A DNA stretch of 64,000 bases from Candidatus Tectimicrobiota bacterium (GTDB taxonomy: Bacteria; JACPUC01). Location: positions 186,001 to 250,000 of the forward strand of contig JACPUC010000019.1 of the NCBI GenBank assembly GCA_016192455.1, in the 5' to 3' direction. Shown in pieces: positions 2 to 55,504 of this stretch. A model generated the notes under the pieces. That model was given only the letters and a program-made list of their open reading frames with translations, was not told the origin of the DNA and made no database searches. How positions within the stretch are numbered: the first letter of the stretch is position 1; every line of letters begins with the position of its first letter. The position numbers were made by a program, and so were the translations under genes.

Positions 2-142
2 ATCATTGACCGCAAGCTCAGCCCTGTGGAGCGCGCCGAAGTGCTGGTGGTCGAGCTGGCGAAGTATCCCCTGGAGAGCCACTACCTCCCACCCCGCTGT
101 CGCACGCTCCTGGAGAGCACCCGACCTCTCCAGCCAGCCTAA
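2..142 (+). CDS. C-terminal fragment of a hypothetical protein (partial, runs off the left edge)
   Basis: Open frame IIDRKLSPVERAEVLVVELAKYPLESHYLPPRCRTLLESTRPLQPA* ending at TAA 140-142; GC3-rich codons; co-oriented with rimI. Confidence 0.6.
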   Translation: MIDRKLSPVERAEVLVVELAKYPLESHYLPPRCRTLLESTRPLQPA

Positions 143-210
143 GTAATCGCCGTGGACGTGGGTGCCGCTTGCCGCAGCCTCCCGCGACGGGTTGCTGAAG
201 GTGGTGGGTA

Positions 211-798
211 GTGCTGCCGATTTCCATCTCCGATATGCGCGAGAGTGATCTCGATGAGGTCCTCCGCATCGAATGGTCCGTCTTCCCTGAACCCTGGTCG
301 CGCGCCTCGTTCCTGCACGAACTTCGCGAGCACGGGGCGGCGCATCTCTATGTGGCGCGCAGTCTGGCCGCAGGCGGGGCCGAGTCGGCGGGTTCGGCGC
401 GTATCGTCGGCTATGCCGGCATGTGGCTGGTGGTGGACGAGGCGCACATCACCACCCTCGCCACTCATCCCGATTACCGGCGTTGTGGGGTCGCGACGCG
501 TCTGCTCTGGCACCTCTTCACGGTGGCGCGGCAGTGCCGCTGCGTGCGCGCCACGCTCGAGGTGCGTCCCTCCAATGTTGCGGCTCGCCGGCTCTACGAG
601 ATCTTCGGCTTCCTGGCTGTCGGGCGACGAAAACGCTACTATGCGAGCAGTGGCGAGGATGCGCTCATCTTGTCGCGGGAGGGCCTGGCGGAATCGAACC
701 CGCAGGTCGCGGCAGGCGGCTTCCTTGAGAAGTCACGGGGCGGCTGCCGAGCCTCCTTCGCCCCTAACCCCGAACCGATCTTGAGAGAGCTAGACTGA
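211..798 (+). CDS. rimI: Ribosomal-protein-alanine N-acetyltransferase
   Basis: IEWSVFPEPWS, VGYAGMWLVVDEAHITTLATHPDYRRCGVA, ATLEVRPSN, GRRKRYY...EDA motifs. Confidence 0.92.
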   Translation: MLPISISDMRESDLDEVLRIEWSVFPEPWSRASFLHELREHGAAHLYVARSLAAGGAESAGSARIVGYAGMWLVVDEAHITTLATHPDYRRCGVATRLLWHLFTVARQCRCVRATLEVRPSNVAARRLYEIFGFLAVGRRKRYYASSGEDALILSREGLAESNPQVAAGGFLEKSRGGCRASFAPNPEPILRELD

Positions 799-802
799 TC
801 TT

Positions 803-1936
803 ATGCGGCGGTCGACCAGCGCGCACGCGCGCCAGCTTGCACGCGATCTCGAACGGATGACGCTGCTCCTGGAGCTGCACGTCGAGGTGTCGCAGCTCCT
901 CATGGCCTCCGAGGGTCTTGAGAGTATCTTCGCGAAGGTGCTTGAAAAGGTCACGCTGGCTCTGGGTGGCGAGCGGGCGCGCTTCCTTCGCTATGATCCG
1001 TCGCACGCCAGCATGGTGACCATCGGAGCCACCGAGGGAACCATGCCGGTGCATGAGCGGGTTGCCCCCCTGCGCTGGCTCGAAAACTCAGCCCACGAGC
1101 CCCCTCCCATCGAGCTCTTCCAGGTTCTCCCCGCCGACGGCGGCAGCGGCGGGACGGTGCGGCTCACCCTGAAGCCGGGCCTGAGCTGCGAGATCAACCT
1201 GGGGGGAGCCGACGGCGAGGAGCGCGCCGTCTTTCTCCTTGCCGCCCATCAGCACCTCTACGGCATGATCGTTGTGCATGGCATCGATACCTCGATCACC
1301 TCCCCGCTGGACGTCAAGTACTTCGATGTCCTGGCGAACCTGCTCGCCCTGGGGCTGCGCAACGCCATGACCCTCGAGGAGACGGAGCGCCTAGCCACCC
1401 GCGACGGCTTGACCGGGGTGTTCAACCATCTTTACTTCCAGGAGTTCCTCGACTGGGCGTTGCATCGCTCCAGCCGTGAACGGCATCCGCTCGTCCTGGT
1501 GATGCTCGATATCGACGACTTCAAGAAAGTCAACGACCGCTTTGGCCACCCGACCGGCGATGAGGTGCTCTGCCGGCTGGCGGAGAGCTTGCAGAACGGG
1601 CTGCGGAAAAGCGACATGGTGGCGCGGTACGGCGGCGAGGAGTTCGTCGTGGTGCTGCCCGCAACGACGGCAAAGCGTGCCCAGCAGCTCATGGATCGCA
1701 TCGCCAAAACGGTCCGACATGGGGTGGAGTTCGAGGAGGCGCCGGACTACGTCATCACTGTCTCCTGCGGCATCGCCGAGTGGGAGGCCCAGGAGCCGAT
1801 CTCGAAGCGCGAGCTCATCGCCCGCGCCGATCAGGCCATGTACTACGGCAAGCGCCACGGCAAGAACTGCACCATCATCTGGACCCCAGTGCTCATGGCC
1901 GGAATGGAGACCGAGCAGCGCACGAGTGAGGCGTGA
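803..1936 (+). CDS. GAF-GGDEF diguanylate cyclase
   Basis: DGLTGVFN, DIDDFKKVNDRFGH, RKSD I-site, GGEEF active site, ADQAMYYGK; GAF-like N-terminus. Confidence 0.92.
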   Translation: MRRSTSAHARQLARDLERMTLLLELHVEVSQLLMASEGLESIFAKVLEKVTLALGGERARFLRYDPSHASMVTIGATEGTMPVHERVAPLRWLENSAHEPPPIELFQVLPADGGSGGTVRLTLKPGLSCEINLGGADGEERAVFLLAAHQHLYGMIVVHGIDTSITSPLDVKYFDVLANLLALGLRNAMTLEETERLATRDGLTGVFNHLYFQEFLDWALHRSSRERHPLVLVMLDIDDFKKVNDRFGHPTGDEVLCRLAESLQNGLRKSDMVARYGGEEFVVVLPATTAKRAQQLMDRIAKTVRHGVEFEEAPDYVITVSCGIAEWEAQEPISKRELIARADQAMYYGKRHGKNCTIIWTPVLMAGMETEQRTSEA

Positions 1937-39819: not shown

Positions 39820-40070
39820 GCCCTTACCTGTCGTCGCGTCTCTGCCGCCGGGAGGTACGCCGCACCAAGAAGCATGGCGCGGTCCTCCTGCGCTCGCGTG
39901 TGGCGCCGCGCGTCCAGACGCGCCAGGCTCTGCCCGAATCAGCAGCCGCGCCTGCGTTCGCAGCGTAGCCGGTTTTCTTGTTGCCTGTCATCAGCCGCGT
40001 GACGACCAGGCCGCGGGTCTCGCGCAAGGGGCCGCAGTTTTCGACAGCGGCCCGACCCTCGGAGGCGCCC

Positions 40071-41117
40071 ATGGCAGCAAAAGCGCCCGCCAACAATCGC
40101 TTGGCACAGATCAACCAAGCTTTCCACGGATTCACCGCCTTCCACACCCTCACCATCGGAGCTGAGCTGAATCTCTTTCTCCAGCTTGGCGCCTGGCCGT
40201 CTGGGTTGACGCCTGGCGAGCTTGCCGCCCAGCTTGGGTTGCATGCGCCGTACGTGCGCACCTGGTGCGAAACGGCGTTCGCCAACGCGTTCCTCGACTT
40301 TGATGCCCAAACGGGCCGCTTTCGTCTCGGAGGGGGGCTGGAGGAGCTGCTCGCCCAGCCTGGGCATCCCAACTTCCAGGGCGGCTTCCTGCAAATGTTT
40401 GGCACCTACTTCAGCCAGGAGTTCCTTGAGCTGCCGAAGCTCTTCCGCAACGGTCAGCAGAGCAGCAGCCGCGAGCGCCGCCAGCACTTCGCCGCCCTGC
40501 TGAAGGGGCGCGGCAGGTCGCGCGGCATGCTCTTCGAGTCCAGGGTGCTGCCGCTGCTGCCGGGGTTGCCCGAGCGGCTGCGGGCGGGCGTGGCCTGCCT
40601 CGATCTGGGGTGCGGGGCGGGATCCTTCCTCCTTTACCTGGCCGAGCGGTTCCCGAATTGCACCTTCTGCGGCGTCGATGTTGATCCCCACGCCATCGCC
40701 ATGGCCCAGGAGGGGCTGCGCGATGCCGGCTTTCCGGCGGGGGTGCGCATCGAGCAGCTCGAAGGGAACGATCTGAGGTACGACGCCGCCTTCGACCTCG
40801 CAACCATGAGCCTGGTGCTGCATGAGATCGACTACGACATCCGCCGCCAGGCGCTGACCGACGTGTACCGCGCCTTGAAGCAGCCAGGCTTGCTGGCGAT
40901 CCTTGACTTCCCCTACCCGAGCTGCATCGAGGAGTTCCGCAACCCCGCTTTCAGCATGGGGGTGATCGACCAGTTCTATGAGGTGGCCTGGGGCAGCCGC
41001 CACCAGAGCTGGGAAGAGATTCAAGCCATGCTGGCCCCCCTCGGCTTCAGCCGCTTCCGCCGCGAGTTCCTCGCCGGCACGCCCTACGCCCTGATGGTCG
41101 CCGAGAAGGCGGGGTAA
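40071..41117 (+). CDS. Class I SAM-dependent methyltransferase with N-terminal wHTH
   Basis: TPGELAAQLGL wHTH; LDLGCGAG, GVDVD, ALKQPG. Confidence 0.85.
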   Translation: MAAKAPANNRLAQINQAFHGFTAFHTLTIGAELNLFLQLGAWPSGLTPGELAAQLGLHAPYVRTWCETAFANAFLDFDAQTGRFRLGGGLEELLAQPGHPNFQGGFLQMFGTYFSQEFLELPKLFRNGQQSSSRERRQHFAALLKGRGRSRGMLFESRVLPLLPGLPERLRAGVACLDLGCGAGSFLLYLAERFPNCTFCGVDVDPHAIAMAQEGLRDAGFPAGVRIEQLEGNDLRYDAAFDLATMSLVLHEIDYDIRRQALTDVYRALKQPGLLAILDFPYPSCIEEFRNPAFSMGVIDQFYEVAWGSRHQSWEEIQAMLAPLGFSRFRREFLAGTPYALMVAEKAG

Positions 41118-41251: not shown

Positions 41252-41875
41252 ATGGTAGAGTTCGCCGTTGACCTTGCAAAGACGGCCCTGCTGGTCATCG
41301 ACATGCAGAACGTTTTCGTCTCGGAAGGGTACGCGTTTTGCGCCCCGAAGGGACGCGATCTGGTGCAGCGTCTCACGCCGCTGCTGGCGCGCTGCCGGGA
41401 GCGCGGCCTGCCCCTCATCTACACCGCCCACGTCATTCGGGCTGATGGCAGCAACCTGGGCGTCCTGGGAAAGATTCACCCGGCGACCTCCCAGGGCGCC
41501 CTCGAGCAGAACAGTGACTCGGCCGCGTTCTACCCCGCCTTGGCGCCGCAGCCGGGTGACATCCTCCTCGAGAAGCCCCGTTACGGCGCCTTCCACGGCA
41601 CCGACCTGGAGATCATCCTGCGGCAGCGCGGCATTGAGACCGTCGTCATCTCCGGCATCGCCACGAACGTCTGCTGCGACACCACGGCGCGCGAGGCAAC
41701 GATGCGCGATTTTCAGGTGATCTTCCTCGCCGACGGCACGGAGTGCCGCGACCTCCCCGATCTGGGCTATGGACCGGTCTCGCATGAGGAGCTGCAGCGC
41801 GTCACCGTGACCAACCTGGGGCGCGGCTTCGCCCAGATCATGAGCATCTCCCAGTTCCTTGACCTGCTGGGGTGA
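41252..41875 (+). CDS. Cysteine hydrolase (isochorismatase family)
   Basis: ALLVIDMQN, KPRYGAF, GIATNVCCDTTAREA. Confidence 0.9.
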   Translation: MVEFAVDLAKTALLVIDMQNVFVSEGYAFCAPKGRDLVQRLTPLLARCRERGLPLIYTAHVIRADGSNLGVLGKIHPATSQGALEQNSDSAAFYPALAPQPGDILLEKPRYGAFHGTDLEIILRQRGIETVVISGIATNVCCDTTAREATMRDFQVIFLADGTECRDLPDLGYGPVSHEELQRVTVTNLGRGFAQIMSISQFLDLLG

Positions 41876-47993: not shown

Positions 47994-48758
47994 CTACTCC
48001 GCCCGACGAGCCGAGAACTCCGCCCACAGGGTGATGGCGCCGCGTAAGCTGGGTTGCTTGCCGAAGAGCACGACCTCGGCAAAACCCGCCGCCCGAAGTG
48101 CCGCCAGAAACTCCGTTTCCGGCAAGGCCCCCGCCACTCACGAGCTCCAGGCCTTCGGATCCTTGCGCGTCGTTTTGTCGAGGCTGCGATCCAGCATGAC
48201 ATCAGCCAGGGCGAGGCGCCCTCCCCGTCGCAGCACGCGGGCCATCTCGCCGAAGAAGAGGTCCTTGCGTGGCGACAGGTTGCTCACGCCGTTACTGATG
48301 ACGAGGTCGAAGCTCGCGTCGGCAAACGGCAGCAACTCCCCATCACCCTGGACGAGCCGCGCGTTCCGCAGTCGCAGCTCGCGGAGGAGCTGGGCGCAGC
48401 GCCTCAGCATGGCGGGGTTCATATCCAGGCCGACGATCGTGCCTTGGGGTCCGACGGCACGGCTGGCGAGAATCGCGTCGAGTCCCGGCCCCACCCCGAC
48501 ATCGAGGACGCGCTCGCCGCCGCTCGCCTCGGCATAACGCAGCGGGCAGCCCACTCCGCTGAAGGAGGTCACGGCCGACGGCGGCAACGTCTCGATGTCG
48601 CGCGGATAGCCCAGCGCCGCGAGCTCCCTCAACCGGACCGCTCGGGTCTCCTGCTCGGCGGGAGCCTCCGCCATCTCGGTGTATTTGCGCAGCACCTCGC
48701 GCCGCAGCCTCTGCTGTGGCTCCGTAAAGATCGCCGCCGCTCCACCCTGGGTCCTCAC
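47994..48758 (-). CDS. ArsM-like SAM methyltransferase, probable selenoprotein (UGA=Sec at 48138-48140; 254 aa)
   Basis: VLDVGVGPGLD, ISNGVSNL, RVLRRGGRL; frame continues past TGA as WSS-U-VAGALPETEFLAALRAAGF to TAG 47994. Confidence 0.85.
48103..48123 (-). promoter_or_regulatory. Bacterial SECIS-like hairpin
   Basis: GCCGGAAAC-GGA-GUUUCUGGC; apical loop starts with G, 23 nt after the UGA. Confidence 0.7.
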
Positions 48759-48946
48759 AGCGGCCTCTCCTCTCCTCGGCGCTCCCCACCATCTGCAAGC
48801 CCGGCGGGAAGTGACGCAGGGCGCGCCGTCACGCCATTGCGCACTATGTAGTATGGCACCCTCATCCCTTCAGCACCAATCCTTCACAGCCTGCACGGCA
48901 TTCCCTCGATCTCGAGAGGCTGAGCCAGAGGTAGGACTGCGTGTTT

Positions 48947-53428: not shown

Positions 53429-53483
53429 TTGACAGGTTGCCCTCTTGGGCCTATACAGTCTCGTTAACTGAGAATGATTGTCA
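53429..53483 (+). promoter_or_regulatory. Sigma70 promoter with Fur-box-like operator
   Basis: TTGACA-N17-TATACA, then TGAGAATGATTGTCA (53469-53483), 2 mismatches to the 7-1-7 TGATAATNATTATCA. Confidence 0.65.
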
Positions 53484-53527
53484 AAATACCGCGCCGCTGC
53501 TTCGGCTTCAGACGGGAAAATAACGTG

Positions 53528-55504
53528 ATGAGCGCCACACCACGGCTCCAGACGACACCTCCTCAGACCCGGCAGGGGTGGGGCGTGCTGCTCCAACTGG
53601 CCCTGCTCGCTGGCGTGCTCGTGGCGTCGCCGCCGGCGTTCGCCGACCAGGCCGCCGGCGACCTGGTGCTCCATATGCTCAGCTACCTGCGCGCGGATTA
53701 CCCAGAGGCGGTGCGTGAGGGGAAAGTCATCAACGCCGCGGAGTTCGCGGAGATGCGCGACTTTGCGCAGCAGATCGCCCGCGGCATCGGTGGTTTGCCG
53801 GAGCGGCACGGGAAGGCGGAGCTGCTGGCGAGCGCCAGGCTCCTACAGGCGGCGATCGAGCAGCGGGCCGCGGTGGAGAAGATTCGCGCGCTGGCGGCCA
53901 CGCTGAGCCACGACCTGGTGCGCCTGTACGGCATCGTCGTCGCCCCCCGGCGGCCCCCGGCGTTGGGAGCAGCGTCCGCCCTTTACCAACAGAACTGCGC
54001 CTCCTGTCACGGAACCGACGGTCGCGGCGACGGCGTGCTTGCCGCCAATCTCGATCCCCCGCCGACGAACTTCCACGATGGCGAACGCGCCGCCCAGCGG
54101 AGCGTCTACGGTCTCTACAACGCCATTTCCCTCGGCGTCAAAGACACCGCCATGCAACCGTTCCGCGCCTTCTCCGAGGAGCAGCGCTGGGCGCTTGCCT
54201 TCTTCGTAAGCCAGTGGGCGTTCGATGACGCGACACGAGCGCGCGGCGCTGACCTCTGGCGCCGCGGCGCCTATCGCAGGGTTTTCGCCGACCTGGGCAG
54301 CATCAGCCGGCTGTCACCGGCGGAGGCGGCGGACCCCCACGGCCCCGACGGCGTGGCGGTGCTGGCGTACCTGCGCAGCCATCCGAAAGCGGTGCAGAGG
54401 TCGGGGGACGCCGCCCTGGCGTTCGCCTTGCAGCACCTGAAGAACAGCCTGGCGGCGTACGAGATGGGGGAGGTGGGGAAGGCGTACCAACTGGCGCTCT
54501 CCGCCTACCTCGACGGCTTCGAGCTGGTGGAGTCAGTGTTGAACGCCATTGATCGCGCCTTCGTGGTCAAGGTGGAGGAGGCAGCGCTGCGCTACCGAAA
54601 TCTGATCCAGCACGCGGCGCCGACCGCCACCGTGCGCGAAGAGGAGCAACGGCTCGAAGCGCTCTTGATGAGCGCGATGGATCGTCTGCAGGCGGGCCGT
54701 CTCTCCCCCGCGGTGAGCTTCGTGGGAGCCTTCACCATCCTGCTGCGCGAGGGACTGGAGGCGATCCTGATCCTGGCGGCGATTGTCGCCTTCCTGGCGA
54801 AGGCAGGCCACCAGCATGCCACCCGCTACGTCCACTATGGCTGGATCGGCGCCCTGGCGGCCGGCATCGGGACGTGGTTCGCCGCCTCGCGCCTGGTGCA
54901 CATCTCCGGCGCCAGCCGCGAGGCCACCGAGGGGTTCACGGGGCTCTTTGCGGCAGGCGTCCTCCTTTACGTGGGGTTCTGGATGCACGGCAAGAGCCAC
55001 GCCGACCAGTGGCGCCGCTTCGTCGACCGCAAGCTGAGCGCCACCCTGGTACACCAGCGGACCCTGTGGCTGTTGGCCGTCCTGTCCTTCGTCGTCGCTT
55101 ACCGCGAAGCCTTCGAGACGGTGCTCTTCTACGAGGTGCTGTGGCTGCAAACCACCGCCGAGGGACACCAGGCTCTGCTGCTCGGCTTCGGCGCGGCGGT
55201 CCTGGGACTCTTGCTCGTGGTGTGGGTGGTGCTGAAGCTCAGTGTCAGGGTGCCGGTCGGCCTCTTCTTTAAATTGAACGCCGCGATCATGTTCATCCTT
55301 GCCATCGTGTTTACCGGAAAGGGGATCGCCGCCCTCCAGGAGGCGGGGAGGGTGCCGGCGAACCCGCTCACCTTCCCCCGCGTCGACGCCCTCGGAATCT
55401 ATCCCAACGTCGAGAGCCTCGGCGTACAGGGCGCCTTGCTTGTCATCATGGCCGGCCTGCTCATCTACACGCAGCTCACGACCAAGCGCAAAGCGCAGGA
55501 CTAG
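53528..55504 (+). CDS. Cytochrome c-FTR1 family iron permease (PbrT-like)
   Basis: LSYLRADY, CASCH heme motif, AYLDGFE, REGLE and REAFE motifs. Confidence 0.9.
   Translation: MSATPRLQTTPPQTRQGWGVLLQLALLAGVLVASPPAFADQAAGDLVLHMLSYLRADYPEAVREGKVINAAEFAEMRDFAQQIARGIGGLPERHGKAELLASARLLQAAIEQRAAVEKIRALAATLSHDLVRLYGIVVAPRRPPALGAASALYQQNCASCHGTDGRGDGVLAANLDPPPTNFHDGERAAQRSVYGLYNAISLGVKDTAMQPFRAFSEEQRWALAFFVSQWAFDDATRARGADLWRRGAYRRVFADLGSISRLSPAEAADPHGPDGVAVLAYLRSHPKAVQRSGDAALAFALQHLKNSLAAYEMGEVGKAYQLALSAYLDGFELVESVLNAIDRAFVVKVEEAALRYRNLIQHAAPTATVREEEQRLEALLMSAMDRLQAGRLSPAVSFVGAFTILLREGLEAILILAAIVAFLAKAGHQHATRYVHYGWIGALAAGIGTWFAASRLVHISGASREATEGFTGLFAAGVLLYVGFWMHGKSHADQWRRFVDRKLSATLVHQRTLWLLAVLSFVVAYREAFETVLFYEVLWLQTTAEGHQALLLGFGAAVLGLLLVVWVVLKLSVRVPVGLFFKLNAAIMFILAIVFTGKGIAALQEAGRVPANPLTFPRVDALGIYPNVESLGVQGALLVIMAGLLIYTQLTTKRKAQD

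Follow-up and report, generated by a model that had tools for sequence, protein, structure and literature searches.

A minus-strand gene in the window (the whole 64,000-nucleotide stretch of DNA analyzed here) very probably encodes a 254-residue selenoprotein, a complete class I ArsM-like methyltransferase that is obtained when SelB and tRNA-Sec recode an in-frame UGA via a hairpin (Table 1). The minus-strand ORF as called (48758..48138) has a GTG start (48758-48756) and ends after 206 residues at a stop TGA (48138-48140). Beyond this TGA the frame remains open for 47 sense codons, up to a TAG (47994-47996), and the residues around the recoded codon read ...AWSS-U-VAGALPETEFLAALRAAGF... A first-pass annotation had reported both the halt of the ORF at the TGA and the 47 further codons, and translation confirmed the two observations. 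The gene model should therefore read 254 codons including Sec207, instead of 206.

Table 1. Features of the ArsM-like selenoprotein gene (positions in the window)
Feature	Position	Strand	Basis and remarks
Whole ArsM-like SAM-dependent methyltransferase gene	47994..48758	minus	Translation with TGA read as Sec; 254 aa
In-frame TGA, read as Sec207	48138..48140	minus	Same column as Cys224 of CmArsM; motif W-x-x-[C/U]-[IV]-x-G-A
47 codons past the Sec codon	47997..48137	minus	Helix 214-223, strands 226-236 and 243-252 (model secondary structure)
Putative bacterial SECIS hairpin, UUGCCGGAAAC-GGA-GUUUCUGGCGG	48101..48125	minus	Folding; loop 48112-48114, 23 nt past the UGA
Purine-rich GAGGAGAGGAGAGG, possible ribosome-binding site 5 nt upstream of the GTG	48764..48777	minus	Sequence inspection alone

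The 254-residue product matched the Pfam families Methyltransf_31, Methyltransf_25 and Methyltransf_11. The best NCBIfam match was to NF041537 (189 bits vs. a cut-off of 510), and it was confined to the methyltransferase domain (profile positions 7-228). The second, NF008823 (ArsM), scored 170 bits, below its cut-off of 263, and NF041536 and NF047649 scored 166 bits (cut-off 575) and 163 bits (cut-off 460), respectively. With its 254 aa, one Sec and no second domain, the protein is not one of the fused multi-Sec proteins that NF041537, NF041536 and NF047649 describe. The best relatives of solved structure were the ArsM enzymes of Chlamydomonas (5evj; phmmer E 2.8e-26) and Cyanidioschyzon (4fr0; about 1e-23). 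In the alignments with these enzymes, residue 207 falls on the Cys in "geC(l/a)gGAL" (Cys224 in CmArsM), and the region past residue 207 aligns to ArsM as far as residue 233.

The protein search gave 385 relatives, and 32 of them were aligned with the query (alignment A1). An AlphaFold model built from A1 reached a pLDDT of 91.3 and a pTM of 0.90, and the 12 top-ranked Foldseek rows were all ArsM or AS3MT (TM 0.63-0.73). The window protein preserves 20 out of 20 invariant A1 columns. At the residue-207 column, Cys was present in all 19 full-length homologues (consensus LWAAC-x-x-GA), and the 13 short homologues (194-212 aa) stop precisely one residue ahead of it. One of the short ones (P0003), which derives from another assembly, shares 87% identity with the window protein and has the same end residue; apart from this relative, identity to the aligned clade members is about 35-43%. 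Twelve more distant short proteins with the same end point (P0006, P0014, P0015, P0034, P0038, P0040, P0041, P0045, P0047, P0052, P0061 and P0063) are, from their sequences, probably selenoproteins that were called as truncated. For annotation this means that the public protein collection has at least 13 homologues that seem to have been truncated where the window gene was.

The comparison was extended to the DNA level with 99 sequences (80 loci of species-representative genomes, 18 loci of further genomes and the window). A motif script could read the residue-207 column in 85 of the 99, with TGC or TGT in 73 and TGA in 12; 11 of the other loci lacked the anchor motif, and three had the anchor but lacked the C/U pattern (L027, one of these three, is visibly a Cys form). 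In all 12 TGA forms the frame is open beyond the TGA and carries the conserved U-[IV]-[AG]-G-A...A-G-F. These forms span at least eight differently labelled lineages: besides the window and L102, their labels are Chloroflexota, Gemmatimonadota (two), Bryobacterales, Actinomycetes, delta proteobacterium, Deltaproteobacteria, Nitrospirota, Burkholderiales and Spirochaetaceae. The expectation in the first-pass annotation of Cys or Sec at residue 207 was thus borne out in the readable sequences, and the family never ends there. Order- and phylum-level searches for close relatives that would allow a codon-level comparison gave solely the window's own genome. The 40 available relatives of this genome are kin at domain level alone; either it has no close kin in the searched genome set, or its placement is unrecorded.

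A true stop at the TGA would make the gene a pseudogene, or its product a truncated protein of 206 residues, and the later frame a relic. Gene callers do end the ORF at the TGA, and the public protein collection holds the 206-aa form only (P0002). We regard this explanation as very improbable, because the TGA is a recurrent one (12 of 85 sequences that could be read) with conserved coding sequence behind it, and because a product ending at residue 206 would, according to the model, miss a helix and two strands that belong to the fold. The hairpin and the Sec machinery, described below, also argue against it.

The minimum-energy fold of an 81-nt stretch contains the hairpin GCCGGAAAC-GGA-GUUUCUGGC. 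The stem has 10 pairs when the 25-nt element is folded alone, or 11 unbroken pairs if G-U is counted. Folded alone, the 25-nt hairpin has an energy of -13.1 kcal/mol (z -4.04), and none of 200 shuffles was as stable. The 81-nt region overall, in G+C-rich DNA, was no more stable than its shuffles (z -0.48), so that the total folding energy is no argument and the local hairpin serves as one. As a background for the genome, 16,570 TGA triplets were sampled under a rule that asks for a G among the first two loop bases, a loop of 3-14 nt and a spacing of 16-37 nt; an unbroken stem of at least 11 bp in agreement with this rule followed 53 of them (0.32%). The published bSECIS model, in the available part of PMC13188914, has an apical loop of 3-9 nt, a stem of 4-16 bp, a G within the first two loop bases, a UGA-loop distance of 16-37 nt and an MFE of at most -7.5 kcal/mol. 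The window hairpin lies within all four of its constraints (GGA loop of 3 nt, 10-11 bp, 23 nt and -13.1 kcal/mol). The GGA-loop hairpin that had been noticed 23 nt after the UGA in the first-pass annotation was therefore found again, and it fits the published bacterial SECIS model.

A similar element follows the TGA in other Sec forms. Eight of the 12 (L020, L021, L024, L030, L070, L073, L083 and L102) have a hairpin of 7-8 bp whose loop, GGA or GGU, lies 17 nt past the UGA. The 23-nt register, 6 nt downstream of the position used by these eight, was seen in the window and L034 only, and the hairpins of L045 and L096 are in other registers. The SECIS hairpin of the family thus occurs in two registers, 17 and 23 nt, which are two codons apart and both have a G-first triloop. 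A rule-fitting stem of at least 7 bp was present after 11 of the 12 TGA forms, compared with 13 of the 73 Cys forms.

Covariation was analyzed in the eight Sec forms that had been picked for the 17-nt hairpin; the window and the three other Sec forms were excluded. In this set 95.3% of the cells are paired, four of the eight pairs have compensatory changes on both sides, and the covariation score was reached in 0 of 500 shuffles, a count that leans towards structure because the eight forms were chosen for showing the 17-nt register. At the same columns in nine Cys forms of the same clade, 41.7% of the cells are paired (as high in 151 of 500 shuffles), five of the eight pairs changed on both sides, and 177 of 500 shuffles reached the covariation score. 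When the partner was slid by 1-3 columns, paired cells made up 34-55% in the eight Sec forms vs. 24-46% in the nine Cys forms. The contrast in the hairpin between Sec and Cys forms can be taken as a stronger argument than the covariation count itself. A hairpin that is specific to Sec forms and covaries speaks against a true stop.

The window genome is a metagenome-assembled genome of 4.46 Mb in 31 contigs, estimated as 88% complete. The first-pass annotation had implied that selA, selB, selC and selD lie elsewhere in the genome, and all four were found above their cut-offs. The selB gene (366 bits, cut-off 242) and the selA gene (596 bits, cut-off 268) are adjacent on contig 23; tRNA-Sec (selC) scored 75.5 bits (gathering score 47) and has the anticodon tca; and selD scored 389 bits (L018, G000:C3:190907-191827). 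This selD also encodes a selenoprotein, its in-frame TGA lying within KVAGUAAKLGPGDL. A complete Sec machinery is a further point against a true stop. The Sec-dependent methyltransferase that had been proposed is supported by the Cys or TGA codon of the homologues, by the SECIS-like hairpin and by the presence of selA, selB, selC and selD.

A sequencing or assembly error, with TGC or TGT as the true codon, has to be weighed since the source of the window is a metagenome-assembled genome that is 88% complete and in 31 contigs. The stretch is present in four runs of one groundwater study. The contigs of two of these runs (X1 and X4, with depths of 25.8 and 16.4) contain the whole stretch without a difference, have the TGA and list no variant; they are a possible source of the window and hence not independent. 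A joint of X4 from 48095 to 48686 (side 22, 80% likeness) resembles a contig of another organism and was set aside. Contigs of two other studies (X5 and X6) have several nearby differences and no listed change at the codon, but the codon is near their ends: they start 10 nt past the TGA, which makes them weak as independent DNA support. The first-pass annotation had named TGC or TGT in raw reads as a refutation; the assembled contigs, which may be the window's own source, show a TGA free of variants. Together with the 87%-identical relative that ends at the same residue, these contigs leave an error in the codon as a most improbable explanation.

In CmArsM four cysteines are conserved (Cys44, Cys72, Cys174 and Cys224). 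According to the available part of PMC6138428, As(III) requires every one of them; the Cys174-Cys224 pair is the metalloid site and is needed for MAs(III), and Cys44 and Cys72 keep arsenic reduced. At the corresponding columns the window protein has V41, V69, G157 and U207, so that the last alone is kept, as Sec. The altered cysteine positions of the first-pass annotation, SNGV (residues 155-158) and SGVGCP (residues 67-72), were recovered in the translation and in the CmArsM alignment.

The window protein is not alone in this pattern. We define here a one-Cys/Sec clade by V, I or A at Cys72, G at Cys174 and C or U at Cys224. At the Cys72/Cys174/Cys224 columns, 64 of the 85 sequences are C/C/C and one (L096) is C/C/U; 11 have V, I or A, then G and U, and nine have V or A, then G and C. 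Sec is therefore used by 11 of the 20 members of the one-Cys group, vs. one of 65 in the three-Cys group. All 20 one-Cys rows fall into one group in a quick maximum-likelihood tree, 19 of them at an SH-aLRT of 89 with L102 weakly joined, and Sec and Cys forms are interspersed within the group. The branch of the window protein is long (1.73), so its exact place within the clade is unsure. Against NF008823 (cut-off 263), the Cys forms of the one-Cys group scored 189-211 bits (6 of 6 below), and the three-Cys forms scored 265-304 bits (4 of 4 above). Locus L118 (G040:C268, minus 3..1478) has a frame of at least 492 aa that runs off the contig, in which a one-Sec ArsM-like domain (VVSNGIFNL ... 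DWFKUIAGAL) is fused to a C-terminal radical-SAM-like part with a CNLACTHC motif; by these motifs it is a fused form of the one-Cys/Sec clade in another genome.

In the window, a RimO/MiaB-like radical SAM enzyme is encoded downstream of the selenoprotein gene and in the same orientation, and a 2-oxoacid dehydrogenase E2/E1 cluster is arranged divergently to the selenoprotein gene. No ars family (Pfam) was found in 20 ORFs picked from the 34 listed with at least 150 aa between 39.9 and 57.2 kb of the window, nor in 73 flanking ORFs chosen within 1.5 kb of 19 clade members. The same 73 flank ORFs gave no recurrent neighbour. The flanks of the clade are heterogeneous: OsmC, MFS and a second methyltransferase were each seen twice, and DsrE, a Cys/Met PLP enzyme and an isochorismatase once each. 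The window itself has a second SAM methyltransferase (Methyltransf_12/25/11; 379 aa, 39978-41117, plus strand) about 7 kb away. It also has an isochorismatase gene at 41252-41875, and an isochorismatase likewise flanks the clade member L021. Further along, at 53474-55504 (plus strand), an ORF of 676 aa encodes both cytochrome c domains and an FTR1 iron permease domain.

In the mechanism that we propose, SelB would bind the hairpin and deliver Sec-tRNA to the UGA (48140-48138). Sec207 is the sole conserved Cys/Sec residue of the clade. By its alignment with ArsM, it would sit at the substrate site facing SAM, like Cys224. There it may hold a thiophilic substrate, some soft metalloid or chalcogen species, by a selenium bond during methyl transfer, and the substrate, placed opposite the SAM methyl, would attack that methyl.

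A bona fide ArsM, in which Sec replaces one arsenic ligand and As(III) is methylated in the canonical way, would agree with the best sequence and structure matches, which are ArsM and AS3MT, and with a Sec at the position of the As-binding Cys224. The literature also files such sequences, the SNGV type included, as 'arsenite S-adenosylmethyltransferase' in the parts of it that were available. We consider this function unlikely. With V, V and G at Cys44, Cys72 and Cys174, the window protein has neither a Cys174 partner nor a Cys44/Cys72 pair, so that the ArsM disulfide cascade cannot run, whereas CmArsM requires all four cysteines for As(III). The scores against NF008823 (170 vs. 263 bits for the window protein; the one-Cys Cys forms likewise below the cut-off and the three-Cys forms above) and the lack of an ars family in the ORFs picked from the window and the clade flanks point in the same direction. 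The first-pass annotation had suggested a chemistry possibly unlike the canonical methylation of As(III). This is a reasonable guess, which draws on one cysteine position of four kept, the NF008823 score and the absence of ars genes nearby.

The same three observations render the name "arsenite methyltransferase" doubtful for the window protein, and its clade probably deserves another one. We propose, tentatively and with less than even confidence, that the one-Cys/Sec clade (SNGV type) is a separate and widespread family of small-molecule methyltransferases that is not ArsM, in which the lone Sec or Cys is the sole reactive residue and the substrate is soft (for example a selenium, tellurium or sulfur species, or an organoarsenical). 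If it is true that the clade acts on a substrate other than As(III), (i) environmental arsM gene counts would be inflated by this clade; and (ii) some selenium-dependent methylation reaction would still have to be identified. A literature search, in the portions of text that were available, returned no paper that separates the one-Cys clade from ArsM, which does not show that none exists.

Compared with ArsM and AS3MT of known structure (CmArsM, CrArsM and human AS3MT; 4fr0, 6cx6, 5evj and 8xt7), the window protein has the same fold in the N-terminal and SAM-binding domains (TM 0.63-0.73), with an identity of 28-31% to algal ArsM and 23% to human AS3MT. It differs from them in the V, V and G that stand for Cys44, Cys72 and Cys174 and in the Sec that stands for Cys224. 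It is also shorter, at 254 aa vs. 377-387 aa for the ArsM chains, and does not have their C-terminal domain.

An "arsenite methyltransferase" (NF008823, motif UxxG) is listed among experimentally verified prokaryotic selenoproteins in the available part of a 2026 review (PMC13188914, citing Fomenko et al. 2007), and the same selenoprotein family appears in a 2022 review (PMC9312934). The UVAG of the window protein fits the UxxG motif of NF008823 (PRK11873), but its 170 bits are under the cut-off of 263. Three fused ArsM-domain selenoproteins are listed too (PMC13188914, citing Haft & Tolstoy 2025, in the same available part). The multi-Sec fusions NF041537 (ArsM/AhpD), NF041536 (ArsM/DUF2284) and NF047649 (methyltransferase/UXPK-star) share the Sec motif UxxG with the window protein, which differs from them in having a single Sec and no second domain and in scoring far under their cut-offs.

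A close likeness comes from the GOS marine metagenome, for which eight 'arsenite S-adenosylmethyltransferase' Sec sequences are given in the available part of Zhang & Gladyshev 2008 (PMC2398784). As far as the available part of its supplementary file 1 goes, four of them are of the ALACUVxGA type (two with SNCV, two fragments without that region) and four have DLWT[AG]UIAG (three with SNGV, the fourth a fragment without that region). Sec lies in the same motif W-x-x-U-I-A-G as in the window protein, and one sequence has the N-terminal FHTGRPL...LGY. By these motifs, the DLWT[AG]UIAG sequences of the available file are of the same clade as the window protein. Members of the window's own clade had therefore entered the catalogue by 2008 as ArsM, and in the text available from PMC2398784 both types share this name, with no division between the one-Cys clade and the rest. 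Novelty was overstated in the first-pass annotation, since ArsM-type Sec at this site has been catalogued since 2007-2008 and SNGV examples stand in the GOS supplement. Judged by sequence, the catalogued "arsenite methyltransferase selenoproteins" are of two kinds: (i) three-Cys ArsM with Sec at Cys224; and (ii) the one-residue clade to which the window protein belongs, with Sec in about half of the members sampled.
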